A DNA stretch of 63,731 bases, counting the filler, from Malassezia furfur (Eukaryota): NCBI GenBank assembly GCA_052055015.1. It is 4 parts of 4 records of this genome, joined end to end, with 100 filler letters (N's around TTAATTAATTAA, not from the genome) between each part and the next. Parts side by side here need not be neighbours in the genome. Positions count along the whole stretch, not along the records: positions 31,983 to 47,861 come from JBQJIT010000259.1; 3 more parts are not named here. One strand, given 5' to 3'. Numbering within the stretch: position 1 is the first letter of the stretch; every line of letters starts with the position of its first letter. This document shows positions 29,810 through 45,503 of the stretch, in pieces. The notes under the pieces are model-generated. The model was not told the origin of the DNA, ran no database searches, and saw only the letters and a list, made by a program, of their open reading frames with translations. The position numbers and the translations under genes are program-made.

Positions 29810-31269
29810 CGAGCCTTGAGCGCGTGGATGCGAACAGGACAACAGGAAGGAACACGGTCCACTTTATACAAATGCGGCTTGGGCACACGCCCTTGGGACG
29901 ACAAAGCCTAGCCGATCCTTTCCGCGGAGTTACAGTTCCCTTCCTCGCGGTCCGCGCTCTATTTACAATAGGCTACGGCAAAACCTGGCCGTCAAATAAA
30001 TATGCCGCTTGCGAACGATGCAATACAGCTCAACGAGGTTTCTGAGTGGTCTGATATCTCTCTCACTTTCCATAATAGTTCGTCGTACGATTTTGACTTT
30101 AGGCATCGCGGCTATAGGCTCTATACCCTAAACTGGACGCTTACGAAATCCATCGATCTAAAAATAGAATCGTAGTCCAATCATGATTTGGGTAGGCCCG
30201 TCAAACCAAGGCACGAGTGATTTGACCCCGGGTTTGGCTCCGTTACCCTGCGCCTCAGTGCCTGCTCCTCGAAGAAGCCTACCTGCGTGGTTAGTCATCT
30301 AACAAAGGTATTTGTTTGTCCTGCCCAAATGTTGTGGTCTTGACTAGTTCCGTGAAGCTCCGCCGTGTCTCTTCTGAGACGAGCGACTGACTGCCTTCGG
30401 CACATGCTTATGCTAGAAGGTCACGCACGAGGAAGAATGTGAACATGATTGAGGGAGTTGCAGCTGAGCAAGAAAAATACGTTGAGTATACCTGACGACA
30501 ACAGATCTGGTTTGTAAGTCTAGCTAGTACCAACAACTATGTGTATTGTTTATTTCCCATGGTGCCATATTCCGTAAGAAAGATCAGCCTTGCATGCGGT
30601 TGCTCAGCCATATCGAGCAAAAAGCCGATGCCTAGCAGAGATGCTTGATTCGGCCGAGCCGGACTAGATGGTCAGTGCGCAGTACTCAAAATGGCTCCGA
30701 TAATGCGAAGTTTCGGAGAGGAACATGATTGCTCAGAGGAACAATCGTGATCGAAGGCTACACGGTAAAATCGAAAGACCTTCATTCAAATCGAATTGCT
30801 GCAGTCACATTGTTCAGTCGGCCTCTCACTGGGCAGGTATGGAAAGATATCGAAATCCATGCGCGTAGGAATAAGAGGAGATGCGGGCAACACTGGGTAC
30901 GTATGCCGTCTTCATATGAACATAGATAGTACACTGTGCACAAATCGTATCGATCATGCGCTTCATTGCTACTTCAATAACTGTCGTCTCAGCAAGTGTG
31001 TAAGATTTTGGAGGATTCTCCACATATGTGGATACCTTTAATTCTGCCCTTTTTCGACATATATGAAAGTGGAGGCTTCCTTGTACACCGGGCGATCTGG
31101 CTCGGTGCGCGAATTTCGCAGCTTGGCTTGCCCCTTGAATTTGGGACGAAATGCACTATTGGTTGTGGCGCGCGGTGGACCATCCACACAGACTTGTACA
31201 TAAGACGTGACGTTATTATCTAGTTTTCTATTCGTCGCCTGTGTTGCGAACCTGGCTGCGGACCACTCG

Positions 31270-31715
31270 GGCGGATTTGCGCTTGTACGGCTCATTAAGG
31301 TACTCAATTTTCTCCTCGAACAGCTTTACTTTGGTTGCCACGATGGCCCCGTCGATCCGCTCCGGGTTGCTCAGTCCGCGAATCAGTGGGACGCCTTTTT
31401 GACTCAGCTACCAAAGGATGGCAATCTGTGCTGTCGCCACCATCTTCTTCTTGGCCAGATTTTTGGCGCGAAGAACCATCTCGTGATCTGAATACGAAGA
31501 GTCGTCGTGCATAACCTCCATACTGTTGCCAATCTGAGTACGGTTTGAAGATTCATCGTTCCACATGTGCTGGCAGCCTCCTATGCATGCTCAAAGAGCG
31601 ACAGTGATTCTTCCACATTCATGAACCAAGACAGCCGCTAGTCTATGTCAAAGGCCATGGAGCCTATGGTGACTTTGGAGACCTTCTATCCCGGGCACAA
31701 TTTCATGTTTTATAG
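31270..31715 (-). pseudogene. Degraded third aldo-keto reductase copy with large internal deletion
   Basis: Minus strand reads G*KVSKVTIGSMAFD...SWFMNVEESLSLFEHA*EA (AKR N-terminus), then in another frame WNDESSNR...LAKKKMVATAQIAILW*LSQKGV.LIRGLSNPERIDGAI...EYLNEPYK (AKR C-terminus). Confidence 0.8.
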
Positions 31716-31827
31716 CTCCAGCTCAAGCAGTTGCTGCTGTGAGAAGTTGTGCGTTACCGATAATATGCATTGACTTTTGAGAGAATTATGATTCCGTTTT
31801 GAACCGCCACAAAATTGACCGAACCAC

Positions 31828-31882
31828 TTAGGATTAGGATTAGGATTAGGATTAGGATTAGGATTAGGATTAGGATTAGGAT
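31828..31882 (+). repeat. Telomeric repeat (TTAGGA)9 at contig end
   Basis: Perfect hexamer tandem, G-rich strand pointing to contig end, after an AT-richer gene-poor region. Confidence 0.92.
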
Positions 31883-31982
31883 NNNNNNNNNNNNNNNNNN
31901 NNNNNNNNNNNNNNNNNNNNNNNNNNTTAATTAATTAANNNNNNNNNNNNNNNNNNNNNNNNNNNNNNNNNNNNNNNNNNNN
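31883..31982. other. Artificial contig linker
   Basis: N-run-TTAATTAATTAA-N-run. Confidence 0.97.
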
Positions 31983-32495
31983 GGGGTTGCTAATGTTGCT
32001 TTCCCGCATTTTTTTCGCGTTTTCACACATACGTCCCGCGCAACGTAGCGTCCCACCCTACAAGTCGGGGCAAGGTGGGCTCCCTTGTGGTGTCCCAGTC
32101 ACGAAATACGGGCAGACGAACGCCTTGCACTCGCTGTTCCCGGATCCGAAGGGTAGCAGTGCCTTGGAACCACACGGGCACGGACAAAGGTGGCGAGAGA
32201 CAAACGCGGCCGGCCGCGTCCCCCCTGACAGGAGTTGTTGGGAAAAATGCAAATTATTTCGCGAATCGCTCACAGCCGCTTCTGGCAGGCTAGGGCCGCG
32301 CGCACGCACCACGCGCCATGGGTGCACCACATGCCCGCAGTACACATCGTACTCCTGCGCCAGCGCTACAGGAACCAGACCATTTAACGTCGAGTGCTAT
32401 GCCTGGTGCACGCGCGCCCGCACGCTGCTCTCCGCGGACAAAGAGCAGCGCGTTGTGGGTACGCCGTGTGGAGGCCTGGCCGTTGCTTGGCAACG

Positions 32496-33189: not shown

Positions 33190-34626
33190 TCAATTCTCGC
33201 GGAGGTGCCAGCCACTCATGTCGCCCGCACTCACGCGCCGGCGCTGCGCATTGGCCAGGCGCGCCTTGTTGCTGCGACCACCGCCTGGTGTACGCGAGGA
33301 GGGTGAACGCACAATTCCTTCGGTCGGCGTCTCCTCCGAGCCGTAGTCGTACGCGTCATCGAACCCATCTTCGCTCGCGCTGTACGCTGGGCCACGGCGT
33401 CCTCGCGATCCAAGCGACGCAGGGGTCGAAACACGACGAGCCTGCGACGCCATGGTCCCCCGCGGCAGGGGCGCCACCTCGGATTCGTTCAATGTGGAAC
33501 CGTCCGAGGTAATACTAGGCGGGGCCCATGACGGGGCACGTAGCATACCCGTACCACCCGCGCCCGCGGGAACAGGCGCCTCTGCGAGGCCAGCGCGGCG
33601 GCTGTTGACGCTGTGGCGCGAGTATGCACCACCATGGTAGTTTGAGTGGCTCGCAAACGTGTTCGAGTCCGACACAGAGGCAGTCGAGGACGGGTCGCTG
33701 TATTCGGGACCACGGCGACTGTGTGAGCCGGACGACGACCCATAGCGCGACGAATACTCCGAGTAGTCGTCGCGCTCAGAGCTGTTGAGCGAGCCGTTGA
33801 CAACCATACCGGGCTTAATGCCGGTACGTCCCGCGTCCTCGTCGTAATAGCGCTTCTCGTTGTAGTCCTCGTACATGTCGTCGTGGTTGTTGCCGAACAT
33901 GCGTACGCCGCCGACCTTTCCGCCACCCTTGGCACGGTACTTCATCGGGTCGTTGAATGACGAGAGCGCCGACGGTGTCTGATGCTGGTAGTTGTACGCA
34001 CGCTGGCCCCACTCCCAGAACACCTCATTAAGCGAGTCCTGGTCAATAAAGAGGAAGAGGTAGGTGGCAAAGAAGAGCTCAATTGCCATGAATCCAGCCT
34101 GGATACCAAACGTGGCATACGCCAGGGGCACCACCCAATTGATCAGGTCACACGCGTGTCCCCAGTCCGCGGGCTTCGGATAATGGTAGTAGCCATCAAA
34201 CAAGCAGTTTTCGCGACCGCGGAAGTCGGCTGCATACGCAAGTGCACCACTGATCCAGATGGAGCACATGGAAAACTGGAAGAGCAGCTCAGACTTCACG
34301 AAAAAGATCATGCCCAAGAACGAGCCACGGCGCACCATGTTGGTGGTCGGCAGGAAGATGTAATAGCCAAAGTAGATGATGCAGGTAAGGAATCCCATGA
34401 CAACCAAGAAAATCAAACTGCTCCAAGAGGGGAAGATAATTGGCTTGTGCGTCCGGAAGTAGTTCACCGCGAGAATGGCCATGATGGAAGTCGCCAATGC
34501 CATGAGGCAGACTAGCACTGTGAAGATGAAACGAATGGCCTGCAGCATCTTGGGGTTCGGTGCAGGCATACCCGAGTGCGGGTCTTGCGCTGGTGTCTCT
34601 AGCGCGTAGCGTTGAGGGAGCACCAT
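33190..34626 (-). CDS. Four-TM (MARVEL-like) membrane protein with long Ser/Gly/Arg-rich cytoplasmic tail
   Basis: Four hydrophobic helices in the first ~200 aa with a Cys-x-Cys loop before TM4; low-complexity C-terminus. Confidence 0.6.
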   Translation of the reverse strand: MVLPQRYALETPAQDPHSGMPAPNPKMLQAIRFIFTVLVCLMALATSIMAILAVNYFRTHKPIIFPSWSSLIFLVVMGFLTCIIYFGYYIFLPTTNMVRRGSFLGMIFFVKSELLFQFSMCSIWISGALAYAADFRGRENCLFDGYYHYPKPADWGHACDLINWVVPLAYATFGIQAGFMAIELFFATYLFLFIDQDSLNEVFWEWGQRAYNYQHQTPSALSSFNDPMKYRAKGGGKVGGVRMFGNNHDDMYEDYNEKRYYDEDAGRTGIKPGMVVNGSLNSSERDDYSEYSSRYGSSSGSHSRRGPEYSDPSSTASVSDSNTFASHSNYHGGAYSRHSVNSRRAGLAEAPVPAGAGGTGMLRAPSWAPPSITSDGSTLNESEVAPLPRGTMASQARRVSTPASLGSRGRRGPAYSASEDGFDDAYDYGSEETPTEGIVRSPSSRTPGGGRSNKARLANAQRRRVSAGDMSGWHLREN

Positions 34627-35062: not shown

Positions 35063-36652
35063 TCACACGCTCATGCGCATGTCAATTTTGCCGTGCGGCT
35101 CATAGCCAATGACCTCAAAGTCGTCCACGCGGAAATCGTCAATGTTGCTCACATCCCGTTTAATCTTAATTGTGGGGAAGGGTCGCGGCTCGCGCATCAG
35201 CTGCTGCTGCAACGGCTCAATATGGTTGAGGTATACGTGAGCGTCACCCATGGCCAGCGTGAATTCGGCCGCTTCGCATCCCGTCACATGTGCGATGAGG
35301 TGGGTGAGTAGCGCATAACTTGCAATGTTGAAGGGCACGCCCAACCCCAGATCGCACGAGCGCTGGTACATCTGGCATGAGAGCTGCGGCTTGCGTCCCA
35401 CCGCCGCCTCTTCAGGGTTCGGCAGGGTGACAAAGAATTGGCACAAGATATGACAGGGTGGCAATGCCATGAGCGGTAGGTCAGGCGGGTTCCATGCGGA
35501 GAGCACAATGCGGCGGTCAGTGGGGTTCGTCTTGATTTGATGAATGACCTGTGCCAGCTGGTCTACACCCTGCCCCGTATAGTCGGTGTCGGCGTCGACG
35601 TACTGGGCGCCAAAGTGCCGCCATTGGAAGCCGTACACCGGTCCCAAGTCGCCCGGACGACGGTGTCCGAGTCCGCGACTCGCGAGGAATTCGGCGGAGC
35701 CATTGCCATCCCAGATGTGCACGTTGCGCTCCGCCAGCCAGTTGGCATCCGTGTTGCCCGAAATAAACCAGAGAAGCTCTTCGAGTACGCCACGGAAGAA
35801 AACGCGTTTGGTGGTGAGCAGCGGCAGCGTGTGGTCGCGCAAGCTGAACTTGAGTACAGAGCGCGGCGCGAACAACGCGCGCGTCCCTGTGCCGGTGCGG
35901 TCTTGGCGGATATTGCCATTGCGGATGACATTCGCGACGAGGTTGAGGTATTGCATCTCCTCGTGGCCCGTGCTCGGCGTGTGTGGGTAGAGCTTGGGCG
36001 AGAACATGGCCTTGAGAACCGGTTCTTCGAGGGAGTGGTGCGCGTAATCCAGAATCGCGACACCAGTGGTATCCATGTCGAACAAGGCACCGGCCTGGAC
36101 GGGTTGGCGCAGGTAGCGTGCGATGAGCACACGGCTAAAGTGGCCGTGCGTCACAACTACCACGTTGTGGTTTTCTTCGTGGAATTTACGCACACGCGCC
36201 AGGACGCGGTCGGCGCGTGCACCGACTTGGTCGGGCAGCTCACCTGGCTGATTGGGATCAGTTTCGCTGTCGGGACAACCATCGCGGAACACGTCCCAGC
36301 CGGGGCGCGTCTTCTGAATGTCCTTCGTCTTGACACCTTCGTACGCGCCGTAGTCCCATTCGCGCAAGTCGTCATCTACCAACACGTCTGGAAGGTGCTT
36401 CTGTTTGCGCTCTTCTTCTGAGCCAAAGACGGCATTGGTAGTCTGCTCACAGCGCAGGCGCGGGCTGCGTACCAGGCGATGCATGGCGTCGAGATCGATC
36501 ACTGCCTCAGGACCGCGCCCGACGAGCTGTCTCCCGAATGCCTCGGCCTCCACGACACCTTCAGCAAGTAGTGGTATATCCGTGCGGCCCGTATGTTTCC
36601 CATTTTTAGACCATTCTGTAACGCCGTGCCGGACAAGAATCAGACGTGGCAT
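35063..36652 (-). CDS. CDC21: Bifunctional fusion: histidine phosphatase (Shb17-like) + thymidylate synthase
   Basis: N-half [43 protein letters not shown]-half [61 protein letters not shown]; one stop-free 529-aa ORF. Confidence 0.93.
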
Positions 36653-36826: not shown

Positions 36827-39800
36827 ATGGACTCACGTCCTCCTATGATGCGGGGGCCTTCGCCTCGCCCACCCGCGCAGGGTATGTTGTCCACCTCCGT
36901 CTCACCTCTAGGCGTTCGCCCCCCGGCTGTCCGTCCAAACGGCGTTCAAGGCGTGCGGCCACCGACGGCTGTGGGTGCACAGACAGTGCGTCCCACAGCC
37001 GGCGCTGCGCCAACTCCTGTGAACCCGCGCGTGGCGAACCCGAGCCGCAGCCCGATGCCGCAGGCGCGTTCGCCGCGCCCGCCCACGGCACCAATGCCTC
37101 CGCGCTCGCCTCGCCCACCTGCGGCGGGCGCCACCGGCACCAGCGCACCGTTGCCTCCTCGGTCGCCGCGTCCGCCCAGTGCGGGAACGCCGCTGCCGCC
37201 GCGCTCGCCGCGTCCCCCCGCGCGTTCGCCGGCACCCGGGAGCCGTCCTGGCGCAGCACAGACAGGTCTGGAGAGCGGGATGAACCGGATGGCGGTGGGT
37301 ACGCCTTCGGCGCCTGGCACGCCCTCGGCAACGCCCGTTCGCCCACCGATGGGTCCGGCGCGGTCGAAGCGCGCCGCCCGCGCGTACCATCAGGACGCTG
37401 CGCCGGCCTCATCTGGCTGGAACGATGTCACGGCGCGTCCGCCTCCGCCGCAGGCGGCGTGGCAACAGGACCCTGCAGTCGCGCGTGGTCCTGTGAACAC
37501 GGCGTATACGCCGACTGTCCCGACTGGAGGTCTTGATGCGGACAGTGCGCTCGATCAGATTCCCGGGCAGCGCAATTCCATTTCGCAGGCGCAGCTGATG
37601 GCTAACCGCGCTGCGCTCGCCGCGCAGAACGGTGGTGTGGTTCCACCAAATGCGCCACGTTTGCCAGGGATGCCGCCGAACGCGATGCCACAGGTCGCGG
37701 GCGCCGGTACCGCCATGGGCGGTGCGCCGGCGATGCCCACGGCGCAGAGTGCGCCCGTGTCCGGCATGGGCGCCCCCGGACAGGGCGCGCGGCCCAAGAT
37801 CGACCCTGACCAGATCCCCGCGCCTGTCGATGCACAGTACGCCGACCAGCAGTTCTTCAACCACGAATTCTTTGGCACGTGTAGCCGTGAGGGCCTGCCA
37901 TTGAGCACGACCAACTTTGCGGCGATCGACCAAGGGAACTGCTCGCCGAAGTTTATGCGGCTGACGACCTACTGTGTGCCGACCACCGACGAGGTCGCCG
38001 CGACGTCCAAGCTGCCGATCGCGCTCACGGTACAGCCGTTTGCGCAGCTACGGGCCGACGAGGCCCCCGTACCACTGGCGCAGCTGGGCGAGACCGGTCC
38101 ACCGCGGTGCAAGCGGTGCCGTGCGTACATTAACCCGTGGTGTCTGTTTGTCGAGGGCGGCATGAAGTGGATCTGCAGTCTGTGTGGGAACGCGACGGAC
38201 GTCGCGCAGGACTACTTCTGCAACCTGGACATCTCAGGGCGGCGTGTGGACCTAGAGATGCGCCCCGAGTTGACACACGGCTCGGTTGACTTCCCCGTGC
38301 CGACCGAGTACTGGGCGGTGCAGACGTCGCTCGACGTGTCGCACATGCTGCCGACGCCCGCAGGGGTGCTCGGTGCCAGCACGCTGCAGCTCACCACCCC
38401 GTCGCGTATGCAGGAGAGCGTCGAGCGCATGGCGGACAACCTTGCGAACGACACCGACGACCCTGCAACCAAGTCGGCGGCGCGTGCCGCCAAGGCCGCG
38501 GGCGAGGCGGCGCTCGGCACGCTGAACCTCGGCAAGGGTCAGACGACCGTCCGTGCGCCGCGTCCGCTGACGTATTTCTTCGTGATCGACGTGAGCTTCA
38601 GTGCAGTGCGCTGCGGCGCGCTGCAGGTGTGCTGCCAGGCGATCCGCGAGGCGCTGTATGGCCCGGCCGAGGGTGCGCCCACCGACGCAAGCCCCGGCTT
38701 TGGCTTGCCGCCCGGTAGCCGCGTGGGCTTTTTGACGTTCGACCAGGCGCTGCACTTTTACAGCTTGGATTCTGAGCTGGGCCAGGCGCAGATGATGGTC
38801 ATGGCGGACCTTGCGGACCCTTTTATCCCGATCTCGAGTGGTCTACTTGTCGACCCGTGGGCGTCGCGCTCGGTGATCGAGTCGTTGTTGCGTGACCTGC
38901 CGACCAACTTTGCCAACACTACCTCGTCCGAGGCGGCGCTCGGTGCCGCGCTGCGTGCCGCCGAGGCGACGCTCGCCGCCATCGGCGGACAGCTCAACCT
39001 GTTCTTGTCGACCATTCCGACGGTAGGCCCTGGCAAGCTCAAACACCGCGAAGACACCAAGCTGTACGGCACGGACAGCGAAAAGAACCTGTTCGGCGTG
39101 CAGGACGCCTTTTACCGGCAGCTGGGCGAGGAGTTTGCACTCGCCGGCGTTGGCGTCAACACTTTCTTCTTCCCCAGCCAGTACATTGACGTCGCGACGA
39201 TTGGGCACATGACTGCCGAGACCGGCGGAGAGGTGTTCTTCCACCCCCGCTTCGACCCGGTGCGCGACGGGGCGCGCGTCATTGCCGAGGTGCAGCGCAC
39301 CGTGCTGCGTGAGACGGCGTACAACGCTACGATGCGCATCCGCTGCTCCACAGGGCTCCGTATTGCGAAGCACTACGGCAACTTCCACCCCCACTCGCTC
39401 ACCGACCTTGAGCTCGGGACGTGGGACGCGGACAAGGCGCTCACCGCGCTTGTCAAACACGATGGCAAGCTGGACGAGTCGCAAGAGGCCTACTTCCAGT
39501 GCGCCGTCCTGTACACCACCGCCACGGGCGAGCGCCGCGTGCGTGTGCATACCATGGCCGTGCCGGTCACCTCGGCGCTCGGCAACGTGTTCCGGTACGC
39601 CGACATGGACAGCGCCATGGCATTCTATGCCAAGGAGGCCGTCACGTTGGCGCACACCAAGTCGCTCAAGGACGTGCGGAGCTACCTCACGTCCAAGTGT
39701 GTTGCCATCCTCACCGCGTACCGCCGCAACTGTGCGTCGTCGACGAGCGCGGGGCAGCTCATCCTCCCTGAGAGCTTCAAGCTGTTCCCGCTCTACGTCC

Positions 39801-40539
39801 TTGCGCTGATTAAGAACAAGGCCATCAAGGGTGGGAACGTGACGTCGGACGTACGTGTGTACTTCATCCGCCTTCTCCTCGGCTTGAGCGTCGGGTCGAC
39901 CATGGCGCTGCTGTATCCGCGCATGGTCGCGCTCCACCGCCTTGCGCCTACGGACGGCGAGCCGGTACTACCGCGTGAGGGCCTCTCTCCCGAGAAGCAG
40001 GCGGAGGAGGACGCGCTGCTGAAGATCACCGAGTGCCCACATCTGATGCGCCCGAGCTATGCGCGCATGGAGCCTCACGGTGCCTACCTCCTCGAGAATG
40101 GCGAGTGGTGCTTGCTCTGGCTCGGCGCCCAGGTCTCGCCGAAGCTGCTCGAGGACCTGTACGGCGTCGGCTCGCTCGACGAACTCGACCCGCGCATGAC
40201 CAGCTTGCCGAACCTGCCCACGAAACTGTCCAAGCAGGTACGCAGCATGATTGCAGGCTTTGCTGCACAGCGCTGCAAGCCGACGCTCCAAGTGATCATT
40301 GCGCGCCAAAACCGCGACGGGAGTACGTATGCCGCGCCCAAGACTGACCGCAGTGGAAGTGGAACTCGCCAACAACCTCGTCGAGGACCAGAACAACGAC
40401 GCAATGAGCTACGTCGACTACGTACGTATTTTGCTTGCTGACCCAGCTCTGCTATGTGCATCGCGTCATCTCGTCGGACCTGACCTCGGCCAAGTCCGAG
40501 GAAAGCGGCGGCTCGTCGCTCTGGAAGGGCTTTTCGTAG
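36827..40539 (+). CDS. COPII coat Sec24-family protein (Sec24C/Sfb3-like); introns 36882-36911 (in-frame), 40323-40353, 40422-40446
   Basis: Pro-rich N-terminus, DQGNCSPKFMR, zinc finger RCKRCRAYINP..WICSLC, trunk FVIDVS, QLILPESFKL, gelsolin-like end; spliced C-terminus LVED..SYVDY/LCYVHR. Confidence 0.92.
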
Positions 40540-41975: not shown

Positions 41976-44681
41976 TCAGATGGGGCGAATGTTGCCGGCA
42001 TTCTGGTTGGACAGGTTCAGGTGTTGCTGCAAATTGGAGCGCACCGGCATCTCACGGGGACCCGTCAGGTGCGAGGTGTGCGATGCAGCCGACGACAGAG
42101 GCGCCGCAAAGGGTGTCGGACTCGCGGTGTTCATGCGCTGCTGGTCCTGTGCCGTGTTAGGGTACAGCACTGGGCCCGGTGGAGAGGCCAAGCCCGTCGA
42201 CGAAGTGTTTGGCGCCACCGACCACGCTTGGCTCCGCGGAAGTTCGTTTATCGGGATATTGTCCGAGTATTGCGGTTCCTGGGGCAGGACCTTCTGGCTG
42301 TTGCTCGTGGGCAGCGTCGCATACGAGCCCATTGCATGGTGCTGACCAAAGGTGTCGTTCGGGTCGTGGAACGACGCGTGCGAATCGTTGCCCTGCATCA
42401 TACCGATCCGCGACTCGTCCACCGTCTGGTCGGGGCGCAGGCTCTCGTTGGTCTGACTTGCCCAAGGCATCGCACCCAGCGCGCCCGACTGCGCTGTGCG
42501 CTGCGCGGGTGCTGCGTTGCGGTTGTTACCGAGTGCAGCGTACTTGCTGCTGCCACCGCCTGTGCGCCGACGGTTACGCAGGTACAAGAGCAAACCTGCC
42601 AATGCCAGGATCACACCGGCCACAATACCAATCACAATACCCGCAATCGCACCACCCGACAGCGAATTGTGATTGCCTGAGCTCGAGTTGCCCAACGAGG
42701 CTGCCGACTGGCTCACCTTTGCGTCAAATTTGGGGTTGTTGACGGGCTTGGGCAGCGGCGGCGGCGTGTCGCCCGACTTGATTGTGAACGGTACCAGACC
42801 CTTGTTTTCGCCACCGATCATCACCATCTTGCCCATGCTCGGCACACCGTTGACCGTCACAAAGAACAACGCGGGGCCAGGCACGAAGATGTTCTGGTTG
42901 GTGGGCATCGGGTTCACAATAAACGTCACATCGCCGCTGTCCTGCACTTCGTACGACAGGTCGAGCTGCAGCGAGCGCTGACCAAAGTTGACGGCGTGCG
43001 TTGAGAAACCGGGGCGAATGACAAACACCTGCGTCCGGTTTGCGAGCTGGTTTGCCTGCTTGCCCATGAAGCTCGCGGGGACCGTAACGTTGAAGGGGTC
43101 ACCACCGTACTTGATGTACTTCGGCACATTGTTCACCGGCGGGCGCGGCTCAAAGTAATACTTCGGGTACCATTGCTCGAGTTCGTACGTCGTGTTGAAG
43201 CCCTGGTACTTGGAGTTGAGGTTTTGCGGCACGGTCGCCACGTCGTTGTGGGGGTTGGAGCCTGCCACAAGCACCGAACCGTCGGGAATGAGAATCGCCG
43301 ACGAGTGGTACAGACGTGCAATAGTCGAGTTGCCGAAACCATCGTAGACCAAACGCTTGCCCTTCGGCTGGGTCGGGTCATACACCACAGGGCGATACGT
43401 GGGGTTCTGCGCAAAGCCCTCGAGATACACTTTGTTGCCGTTCGTGTCTTGCGCCTGATTCCAGGTGGTGTTACCGTAGCCAGCCGTGCCCTTTTCAGCA
43501 CCGTTCACAATCACCATGGTTCCATCCGGGAGCTGGATGAACTGGCCCATCGAGCGGCCTTCGGGGAGATCCTCCTCGTGCACATAGTTGACATTGTCGC
43601 CAGCGCTACCATCGCTCTTTTCCGGCGTGATCGAGTGGCACTCAGTGTTGGCCGTGTGGTGATACATGTTGATACCGGGCGCAGTGTAATTCCCCCATTT
43701 GTCGGCATCGACCGTCGAGCCACCACAGAAGAGGATCGTAGGGGTGTAGTTATTTGCGGGCGTCAACGGAAGCATGGCCGTCGCAGCCGAGGCAGGGTAT
43801 ACGCGAATAATTTCGCCCGGCATGTCCGGCAGGCCCTCTTCCTTGTTGTTGTACGGGTCCCAGAGGGTCGTACTGTAGTTGGCCTGCATGAAGATCTTGC
43901 CCGAGGGCATGAGGTAGGTGTGTGGGTACATGTTCAAACCACTGGTGTTGACCATGAAGTTCGATTTGGCCGGTTGTGGCTTGTTCGTCGGCGGCCAGAA
44001 CTCGTACGAAGGGTTGGCACCACCCTGCGTCCAGTCACCCTCGACGAAGTTGGTCGACATTGTCTCATAAGCGGGGTCGACGTTGGGGAAGTTGCGGTTG
44101 ATATAGCCACCACTCGTCGCACCGCCAATGATCACCACCGAGCCGTCCGCGAGGCCTTCAATACCCGGGTACCACCGCTCCGAGTCCATCTGGTTCGGGC
44201 TGTTGTACTGATCGATCCACTGCAGTTCGCCCGAGTTATCCGCTGGCTCCATAATACGAACCACACGGCGACCATCTTGGTCATGGTAAGGTGCATAAGG
44301 CCCCGTGTCACCACCCTGAGGGGTGGCACCACCGTACGAAACGGCCTTGTTACCACCGACAACAATATACGTGCCGTTACCAAGCGTCATACCGGCGGCA
44401 CAGAATGGGTTTGTGGCCGCATCCAAGCCCTTCATGCTGAAGTCGGTGAGGTTGACCAACGAAGACCACGTCGGCTTGCCAGTGTTGGTCAGTTTCTTAT
44501 TGCCCTCAACCTTATCGAGAATGAATGCGGTATTCTCGTCCGCAAGACCGAGCATCATAGCCGATGCCAGCGAGTCTTGCTGGACGATCTTGTAGGTCAG
44601 CGGTTTCCCATCTGTTTGCTGGCCGCTAGCACAGCCGCACAAGGCGAGTGAGAGCACCACTGCCGAATATAAACACTTCAT
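41976..44681 (-). CDS. Membrane-anchored copper radical oxidase (glyoxal oxidase, AA5_1; Glo1-like)
   Basis: Signal peptide MKCLYSAVVLSLALCGCASG; NPFCAAG (Cys), RWYP (Tyr), ARLYHSSA (Tyr-His), FSTHA (His); C-terminal TM helix GAIAGIVIGIVAGVILAL. Confidence 0.9.
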   Translation of the reverse strand: MKCLYSAVVLSLALCGCASGQQTDGKPLTYKIVQQDSLASAMMLGLADENTAFILDKVEGNKKLTNTGKPTWSSLVNLTDFSMKGLDAATNPFCAAGMTLGNGTYIVVGGNKAVSYGGATPQGGDTGPYAPYHDQDGRRVVRIMEPADNSGELQWIDQYNSPNQMDSERWYPGIEGLADGSVVIIGGATSGGYINRNFPNVDPAYETMSTNFVEGDWTQGGANPSYEFWPPTNKPQPAKSNFMVNTSGLNMYPHTYLMPSGKIFMQANYSTTLWDPYNNKEEGLPDMPGEIIRVYPASAATAMLPLTPANNYTPTILFCGGSTVDADKWGNYTAPGINMYHHTANTECHSITPEKSDGSAGDNVNYVHEEDLPEGRSMGQFIQLPDGTMVIVNGAEKGTAGYGNTTWNQAQDTNGNKVYLEGFAQNPTYRPVVYDPTQPKGKRLVYDGFGNSTIARLYHSSAILIPDGSVLVAGSNPHNDVATVPQNLNSKYQGFNTTYELEQWYPKYYFEPRPPVNNVPKYIKYGGDPFNVTVPASFMGKQANQLANRTQVFVIRPGFSTHAVNFGQRSLQLDLSYEVQDSGDVTFIVNPMPTNQNIFVPGPALFFVTVNGVPSMGKMVMIGGENKGLVPFTIKSGDTPPPLPKPVNNPKFDAKVSQSAASLGNSSSGNHNSLSGGAIAGIVIGIVAGVILALAGLLLYLRNRRRTGGGSSKYAALGNNRNAAPAQRTAQSGALGAMPWASQTNESLRPDQTVDESRIGMMQGNDSHASFHDPNDTFGQHHAMGSYATLPTSNSQKVLPQEPQYSDNIPINELPRSQAWSVAPNTSSTGLASPPGPVLYPNTAQDQQRMNTASPTPFAAPLSSAASHTSHLTGPREMPVRSNLQQHLNLSNQNAGNIRPI

Positions 44682-45503
44682 CGTAAAATGAACCATTTGT
44701 GGTAACCCTGAACGCACACCACGGATGTGTGTGTGCTGTGCAAAGTCAGGCGTCACACCGGGGTCGATAGAAAGGGAGAGGTACGGTGCGATACGCGCGT
44801 GATACACCGAGTCTTGTTCCAACTACCGACGTTTACAAGCTTTAAAAACGCGTGTGCAATTCCGACGACAACACGCCATCGCAGCGAATCAGGGACCAGT
44901 CCAGCACGTGCTAGAATCTGCCCCTAATTGTGGCACATACCTTTGCACGGCCAGGGCTAAGACCTGGGATTCCTTTGCGATATTATTCGATGTAGAAATT
45001 CCCGCAGACAACGCTACTCCCTCGCTGACCTAATGGACGGGCCATATTCGCGCCTTGAGACGCAAATCGACGCATATCGGCAACATCCACCTGCAAGGAG
45101 CACTGGTAGTACATGAACGCCCGAGCCACTGCAGCTCTCATCGCCCGATCTTGACCACGTGGTTCATTCCACGGGCCTGTGTGCGCCACGACCTTGACTA
45201 AAGCGGGGGAGGGCAGGCTTGTCGGCCGGCGTGATAGGCAGCGGGGACGCGTGCCATGTGGTCCCCGGGCAGGTGGGGCAAAGCTTGACCTTGACCTTGG
45301 CACCTAACTGATCGTTGTGGCTCCGCTTATTCCAAGCTTGTAGACAGGGTTGTGGCGCTAGTGTGACGACTTCTGGTTCGTTTCTGCTTTGTGTCTTGTG
45401 TTTGTGGTGTCGCCCTCTTCCCGCGCGCATCGATCGCCTTCAGTTTGGATTCGCTCCCCTACTCCAAAGAAACGTCTCTTAACGTTCCCATTCACGACCT
45501 AGC

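Follow-up and report, generated by a model that had tools for sequence, protein, structure and literature searches.

The gene at positions 35063..36652 (minus strand) of the window encodes a histidine phosphatase of the Shb17 type fused to a ThyA-type thymidylate synthase (TS). By the window we mean the whole stretch of Malassezia furfur DNA that was analysed (63,731 nucleotides, filler included). The Shb17-TS fusion is a real, old, subphylum-level join of two known enzymes. Databases hold it as plain thymidylate synthase, and it appears to be unstudied. On balance, we favour a tethered two-enzyme protein, an SBP/FBP phosphatase plus TS, whose activities are coupled by co-expression and not by channelling.

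One intron-free reading frame

The ORF runs from ATG to TGA over 1590 nt, without introns and with 0 internal stops. Its product has 529 amino acids (59.7 kDa), with the phosphatase at the N-terminus. It is 99.4% identical to M. furfur KAI3626137.1 and 97.5% identical to M. brasiliensis WFC93822.1. Pfam places His_Phos_1 (PF00300) at residues 4-207 (E 4.3e-40; 137.9 bits, cut-off 21.7) and Thymidylat_synt (PF00303) at residues 234-529 (E 1.4e-107). The initial annotation had described a single frame carrying both enzymes with their motifs intact. This holds: the 529-aa frame has no stop, both Pfam domains are present, and all five motifs lie in the translated ORF, namely RHG (8-10), SPRLR (63-67), LREWDYG (96-102), HGH (169-171) and PPCH (398-401).

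The gene stands head to head with a divergent SEC24-like upstream neighbour (36827..40441, plus strand; Pfam Sec23/24 domains). Their start codons are 174 nt apart. The downstream neighbour (33190..34626, minus strand) encodes 478 amino acids; its N-terminal part is hydrophobic, and Pfam gave no match. Two Malassezia-type metagenome loci also carry an unbroken fusion ORF. The first (L001) has the same SEC24-like and downstream neighbours; the second (L002) has the same downstream neighbour, and its contig stops just upstream. At the DNA level, no stop or intron was found within the fusion ORF at these three loci (window, L001 and L002).

For comparison, we aligned 45 full-length fusions, picked from 158 proteins to cover the named species. 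Some are near-duplicates. The alignment omits P0016, P0105, P0135, P0313, P0315 and P0330, whose gene models seemed faulty. PF00300 and PF00303 are the sole Pfam matches in 45/45 of the aligned proteins.

A continuous ORF could still give mostly two products, through an internal start, splicing or cleavage, or could be a gene-model artefact. This strain does have two in-frame methionines near the junction, M216 and M233. Likewise, false joins are known at the same locus: the M. cuniculi model P0330 (959 aa) reads into the downstream gene. However, M216, the 'KAMF' methionine at which a separate TS might start, occurs in 16 of the 45 fusions and lies inside the last phosphatase strand of the model, a core strand. 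In 23 of the 45 there is no Met between H205 and R249. An internal TS start is thus not a conserved option, and by the alignment a separately started TS seems unlikely. The three loci without stop or intron, the same frame and junction in 19 genera, and a curated M. sympodialis model of 568 aa also oppose the idea. We give two products, or an artefact, hardly any credence.

The M. sympodialis proteome table lists MSYG_2776 ('CDC21') with 10 unique peptides and a coverage of 0.304577 (PMC6004016). This value equals 173/568, and the model is thus 568 aa, or fusion-sized; peptide positions are not in the table. The annotation of this species was curated manually with RNA-seq and peptides (PMC5389616).

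Two irregular gene models deserve a remark. P0330 joins the TS gene to the counterpart of window 33190-34626, and the TS C-terminus is lost. This join is a singleton, differs from the fusion studied here and is probably a gene-model artefact, while it confirms the gene order. P0026, P0021 and P0135 (unnamed or M. caprae) have residues broken or lost directly after EWDYG, which suggests an intron at this place of the phosphatase domain in one Malassezia subclade.

The phosphatase domain

The N-terminal domain (residues 1-217; 36002..36652, minus strand) belongs to the Shb17/Gpm2 subfamily of PF00300. Against the PDB, phmmer matched it to 3f3k (yeast YKR043C/Shb17; E 2e-33) and 2a6p (Mtb Gpm2; E 3e-27), with the next family at E 1e-08. 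The domain model has a pLDDT of 97 and a pTM of 0.93. Used as a Foldseek query, it returned Shb17 or Gpm2 entries at all of ranks 1-6. VIA-align gave Z 28.6 with 2a6p (rmsd 1.4, 191 aligned) and Z 25.8 with 3lg2 (rmsd 1.8, 204 aligned); the next value was 23.7. The proposal of a Shb17-like N-domain is therefore supported, with yeast Shb17 and Mtb Gpm2 as its nearest solved relatives.

Each of the two relatives also differs from it. Yeast Shb17/YK23 (YKR043C; PDB 3f3k, 3lg2, 3ll4, 3oi7) is the best match both by PDB sequence and by Foldseek. However, it is standalone in yeast and about 32-38% identical, and the activity of the fused domain is a prediction. Mycobacterial Gpm2 (Rv3214, PDB 2a6p) is the top VIA-align match, but it is bacterial and standalone, whereas the window domain falls among fungal proteins in the tree. 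YK23/Shb17 has FBPase and SBPase activity, and Gpm2 is a metal-independent FBPase with broad phosphatase activity (PMC4535450). Another bacterial histidine phosphatase is described with both FBPase and SBPase activities (PMC11005471).

Ten residues are invariant in 45/45 fusions: R8, H9, T21, S63, R67, E98, Y101, H169, H171 and H205. They match yeast R12, H13, T25, S65, R69, E99, Y102, H176, H178 and H244 in turn. Among them are R8 and the catalytic H9 of the RHG motif (R8, H9, G10; 36623..36631, minus strand). The set expected of a branch-1 histidine phosphatase (RHG, second Arg, Glu donor, late His) is present as R8, H9, R67, E98 and H169 in 45/45. H20 is likewise invariant (45/45 fusions).

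In yeast Shb17, we take H178, R181, H244 and Y24/T25 to be the second-phosphate and sugar-binding residues. The window protein has H171, R174, H205 and T21 in these places, with Y24 replaced by H20. A histidine is also found there in 32/33 standalone homologues. The yeast W131 is Phe in the window protein. The HGHxxR element (H169, H171, R174; 36131..36148, minus strand) corresponds to yeast H176, H178 and R181. Its arginine R174 is present in 40/45 fusions and kept in 33/33 standalone homologues. M. restricta, M. globosa and M. nana (P0077, P0011, P0380, P0134, P0009) have replaced it with N, S or I (window 36131-36133). As far as the residues tell, this loss suggests that the bisphosphatase activity of these species is changed or lowered.

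With the nearest NCBIfam acid-phosphatase model, the domain scores 131.7, below the cut-off of 226. A cofactor-dependent phosphoglycerate mutase (dPGM) was considered and rejected: TIGR01258 reaches 33.1 vs a cut-off of 81.7, and other dPGM models are lower against theirs. M. sympodialis has a separate GPM1-like protein.

Genomic context and substrate

We scanned the genes next to the phosphatase in bacteria. Of 107 adjacent ORFs, 95 were scanned, and these belong to 65 loci. The 12 that were set aside include every ORF of three loci that duplicate others. A pentose-phosphate-type gene adjoins the bacterial phosphatase in 13/65 loci and is absent in 52/65, a proportion that stands without a background rate for comparison. 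These 13 comprise phosphoketolase (5), 6-phosphogluconate dehydrogenase (3), G6PD (2), transaldolase (1), transketolase (1) and phosphoglucose isomerase (1). The phosphoketolase gene is directly upstream of the phosphatase in L047, L050, L058, L068 and L071 (5/65 bacterial loci).

Fusions to other enzymes were also considered. From the bacterial or unnamed multi-domain matches, 15 were hand-picked for sugar-related or other second domains, and most are singletons. In 12/15 of them the second domain is RpiB (4), RpiA (2), class I aldolase (2), phosphoglucomutase (2), G6PD (1) or phosphogluconolactonase (1). RpiB, RpiA or class I FBP aldolase shares one chain with the phosphatase in P0027, P0028, P0032, P0333, P0046, P0060, P0035 and P0052. 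An aldolase and a Shb17-type phosphatase would be consecutive steps of riboneogenesis.

The bacterial context favours sugar phosphates over nucleotides as the substrate. This bears on the reading in which the N-domain was repurposed as a nucleotide phosphatase, acting on dUMP, dTMP or FdUMP-like analogues and trimming or cleaning the pool by the TS site. The replacement of R174 in M. restricta, M. globosa and M. nana, and the long Malassezia branches, would fit such a change. However, H20, T21, S63, Y101, H171 and H205 are kept in 45/45 fusions and R174 in 40/45, as in the standalone homologues. The bacterial neighbours and bacterial fusions point to pentose and sugar phosphates, and a phosphatase that hydrolysed dUMP or dTMP next to TS would set up a futile cycle. 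We consider this reading very unlikely. Nucleotide sanitising, as originally suggested, is not supported: the sugar-bisphosphatase residues are kept, and the bacterial relatives adjoin pentose-phosphate genes.

M. sympodialis expresses a separate FBP1 (PMC6004016 supplement). A role as the sole gluconeogenic FBPase is therefore unlikely, and SBP would be a likelier physiological substrate than FBP.

The thymidylate synthase domain

The C-terminal domain (residues 232-529; 35066..35959, minus strand) aligns with PF00303 over positions 2-266 of 266 (359 bits) and scores 300.6 with TIGR03284 (cut-off 108.35). Its best fold match is the Cryptococcus TS 2aaz (rmsd 1.6). R249, R380, R381, C400, H401, R431, S432, D434, N442, H472 and Y474 are invariant in 45/45 fusions, among them Cys400 of PPCH (35453..35455, minus strand). 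The protein ends with V529, likewise in 45/45. We take the Cys of PCH to be catalytic, the four Arg to bind phosphate and the Asn to give dUMP specificity, with a free C-terminal residue. From its residues, the domain looks like an ordinary ThyA.

TS is an obligate dimer and needs a free C-terminus. The phosphatase comes first because TS has this requirement. DHFR-TS is the textbook TS fusion of eukaryotes; the TS of fungi is regarded as monofunctional. DHFR-TS of protists and plants resembles our fusion in having an N-terminal enzyme domain, a linker and a C-terminal ThyA with a free C-terminus, at a similar size. However, its N-domain is DHFR and not a histidine phosphatase, and the DHFR profile is absent in 45/45 fusions. 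The full-length superposition of the fusion on DHFR-TS gives an rmsd of 17-20. DHFR and TS share a folate intermediate, whereas Shb17 and TS share none.

Linker and domain arrangement

AlphaFold predicts the full-length monomer with a pLDDT of 89.6 and a pTM of 0.60, while each domain by itself is modelled with confidence. The last phosphatase strand ends at residue 217 and the first TS helix starts at 232. This leaves a linker of about 14 residues (218-231; 35960..36001, minus strand), with pLDDT <50 at residues 222-228; the ~10 aa first estimated came close. Over the 45 fusions the linker has 9-33 residues (median 23). Just before it, at M216-F217 (36002..36007, minus strand), the phenylalanine takes the place of an Asn: column 217 is F, L or V in 45/45 fusions vs N in 33/33 standalone homologues. 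The linker begins with a semi-conserved SxKxxP (S218 in 43/45, K220 in 32/45, P223 in 42/45). The conservation of F-S-x-K-x-x-P behind the phosphatase domain is a hint that this segment has some structural function and is not simply a passive linker.

This junction gives some ground for an integrated regulatory enzyme. In such an enzyme, the phosphatase would dock on the TS dimer in the manner of DHFR in the protist DHFR-TS; a sugar bisphosphate would modulate dTMP synthesis, and TS would sense carbon flux. The change from the standalone Asn and the SxKxxP that follows it are in its favour. The same is true of the retention of the fusion over three classes. A dimeric Shb17 together with the obligate TS dimer makes a closed four-domain assembly conceivable; Shb17 is listed as a dimer in PMC8151747. 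Conversely, the monomer pTM of 0.60 and the low pLDDT of the linker speak against docking. So does the linker itself, which varies in length and is little conserved beyond P223. A complex prediction of the phosphatase domain with the TS dimer, run without alignments, scored 0.01 and counts neither way for binding. Regulation of this kind seems to us unlikely. Equally doubtful is a second kind of bifunctional eukaryotic TS, with the Shb17 domain packed against the TS dimer through F-S-x-K-x-x-P and with dTMP synthesis tuned by SBP/FBP levels. If it were true, this packing would be an allosteric link from central carbon flux to DNA-precursor supply.

In the tethered two-enzyme protein that we favour, dTMP would be made by the C-domain, an ordinary ThyA in dimeric form. 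Each active site would act independently of the other, on a short, partly flexible tether. Their link would consist in common expression, stoichiometry and location, and the ribose-phosphate supply would rise with dTMP synthesis. A dispensable phosphatase would be retained through its attachment to the essential TS.

Sedoheptulose-7-P (S7P) is many enzymatic steps from dUMP. Since S7P lies several steps from any nucleotide, channelling between phosphatase and TS is implausible. The physical coupling proposed in the initial annotation, understood as channelling, is not supported: S7P is remote from dUMP, and the pTM of 0.60 means no confident domain arrangement.

A known chimera offers a comparison. 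According to PMC10051792, basidiomycetes have a spermidine synthase-saccharopine reductase chimera, whose enzymes belong to different pathways, are separate in ascomycetes, and have been read as co-expressed. Like Shb17-TS, it is a lineage-wide fungal two-enzyme fusion. It differs in its enzymes, in its wider range (basidiomycetes) and in that its fused transcript was cloned, whereas Shb17-TS is known from the ORF.

The join may also be a neutral accident. Adjacent genes would have fused in a compact ancestral genome; both activities would persist with an unselected link, and fission would need a new TS promoter and start. By the established pathways, the two reactions have no common substrate or product, and separate genes suffice in other fungi. 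SHB17 deletion alone is reported to cause no growth phenotype in either S. cerevisiae or K. lactis (PMC8151747, PMC11817168). A thyA gene adjoins the phosphatase in 0/78 non-Malassezia loci, which is also in line with an accident. However, the invariant phosphatase catalytic residues (45/45) indicate that the domain is under selection; they do not show this for the link. No split form was found among the named Ustilaginomycotina in the best 120 of 7650 matches. We see a neutral accident as a minor possibility.

Distribution and database status

With residues 1-230 of the fusion protein as the query and targets restricted to 290-926 aa, the search gave 64 matches, 16 with both domains. The same search with a Thecaphora fusion gave 38, of which 26 have both. 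Among 513 fetched proteins, 158 match both profiles, and all of these share 64.9% identity or more with one of the named fusions of Ustilaginomycotina. Both domains are present in 4 of the best 150 matches among 1.84 billion representatives.

Search matches and cluster members together give named fusions in 19 genera, alike in frame and junction. These are Malassezia, Thecaphora, Pseudozyma, Testicularia, Kalmanozyma, Sporisorium, Ustilago/Mycosarcoma, Moesziomyces, Melanopsichium, Violaceomyces, Exobasidium, Meira, Tilletia, Tilletiopsis, Tilletiaria, Parajaminaea, Jaminaea, Sympodiomycopsis and Pseudomicrostroma. We take them to belong to the Malasseziomycetes, Ustilaginomycetes and Exobasidiomycetes. 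Among the named records in the search matches, the fusion was not met in the remaining 2 of the 5 Ustilaginomycotina classes.

Outside the subphylum, the two enzymes are separate where they were seen. The Shb17-like homologues of the Agaricomycetes Tricholoma and Vararia are standalone (217 and 220 aa), as is the Cryptococcus TS (317 aa). No named Pucciniomycotina or Wallemia record is among the matches, and few outgroups stand behind the outer limit. Within the subphylum, the best 120 of 7650 matches of 122-389 aa contain no standalone phosphatase from a named Ustilaginomycotina. Likewise, the YKR043C label is absent from the 3,189 rows of the M. sympodialis proteome table (PMC6004016 supplement). 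The fusion had been suggested as a marker of Ustilaginomycotina. It does look like a subphylum character; on the other hand, this covers 3/5 classes by name, with few outgroups behind the limit.

Two entries, P0313 and P0353, are filed under Golovinomyces magnicellulatus (a mildew) and Adiantum nelumboides (a fern) and would place the fusion outside Ustilaginomycotina. They seem to be contaminants of those assemblies: the Golovinomyces record is 99.6% identical to Moesziomyces aphidis over 234 aa, and the Adiantum record is 88% identical to Meira.

The fusion proteins are present in NCBI and UniRef, nearly all as thymidylate synthase or hypothetical. The orthologues of Ustilago (Mycosarcoma) maydis (XP_011388701.1), M. 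globosa (MGL_2153), M. restricta (AYO41396.1) and M. furfur (WFD45892.1) have the same architecture and junction, with 56-95% identity to the fusion protein over the full length. They differ in nothing of substance, and their names ('thymidylate synthase') ignore the N-domain. One P. hubeiensis orthologue goes under 'phosphoglycerate mutase'. The cluster representatives of the orthologues have both Pfam domains in their precomputed annotation, and the aligned rows have them too. In the ESM atlas there are clusters with both Pfam families; the TS part matched generic TS clusters. In mainly open-access literature, we found no functional study or description of the fusion; an earlier survey of fungal gene fusions may list it.

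Ancestry and rates of evolution

We built a tree of the phosphatase domain with 68 rows (30 fused, 4 fungal standalone and 34 non-fungal); yeast Shb17 is not among them. The fused and fungal standalone rows group together against the 34 non-fungal rows with a support of 100/98. The N-domain is thus fungal in descent. Streptomyces and Rhizobium proteins top the 122-389 aa search, and a horizontal transfer from bacteria was considered; the tree rejects it.

In the free tree, the fused rows do not form one clade (0% of 200 bootstrap trees), and a long Malassezia branch lies outside. However, their monophyly, imposed as a constraint, is not rejected (AU p 0.158). The change from Asn to F/L/V at column 217, common to all fusions, is independent support for one origin. 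We infer a single fusion event in the ancestor of Ustilaginomycotina, which would have joined a fungal Shb17-type gene to the front of the TS gene.

Compared with L001 and L002, the N-domain is identical at about 0.64, 0.72 and 0.29-0.44 of codon positions 1, 2 and 3, which is a pattern of constraint. Its dN is about 0.42 vs 0.20 for TS (~2x). The dS values are largely saturated and undefined in 3/6 comparisons. The loss of R174 in 5/45 fusions and the faster evolution of the N-domain may mean that its function is drifting in Malassezia.

Implications and further observations

Shb17-TS instead appears to be carried by a whole subphylum, whose members include the model smut U. maydis and the most common skin fungus of humans. 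The fusion may serve as a rare genomic character of Ustilaginomycotina. It also matters for annotation: metabolic models would miss the SBPase of a gene known only as TS, and two activities would be lost when TS is knocked out or down in these fungi. It would, besides, allow a direct answer to the question whether riboneogenesis and DNA-precursor synthesis are coupled. Unless cross-talk is shown, the surprise is moderate, as both enzymes are known and public domain annotation already shows the architecture. The suggestion of a selective antifungal target is not supported. The TS active-site residues that were checked are canonical, and the shb17 deletions in two yeasts have no growth phenotype of their own.

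A few observations lie outside the fusion. We take yeast CDC8 thymidylate kinase to have about 216 aa. The CDC8-like thymidylate kinase of M. sympodialis, MSYG_2835, has a coverage of 52/531, which corresponds to a 531-aa model (PMC6004016 supplement). This kinase may be another fused enzyme of the dTTP pathway. In the window, positions 41976-44696 (minus strand) encode a 906-aa protein similar to glyoxal/galactose oxidase; its N-terminus is signal-like, and a hydrophobic segment lies in its C-terminal part. Finally, positions 30001-32000 have a GC content of 0.45 vs about 0.52-0.70 in the rest of the window.
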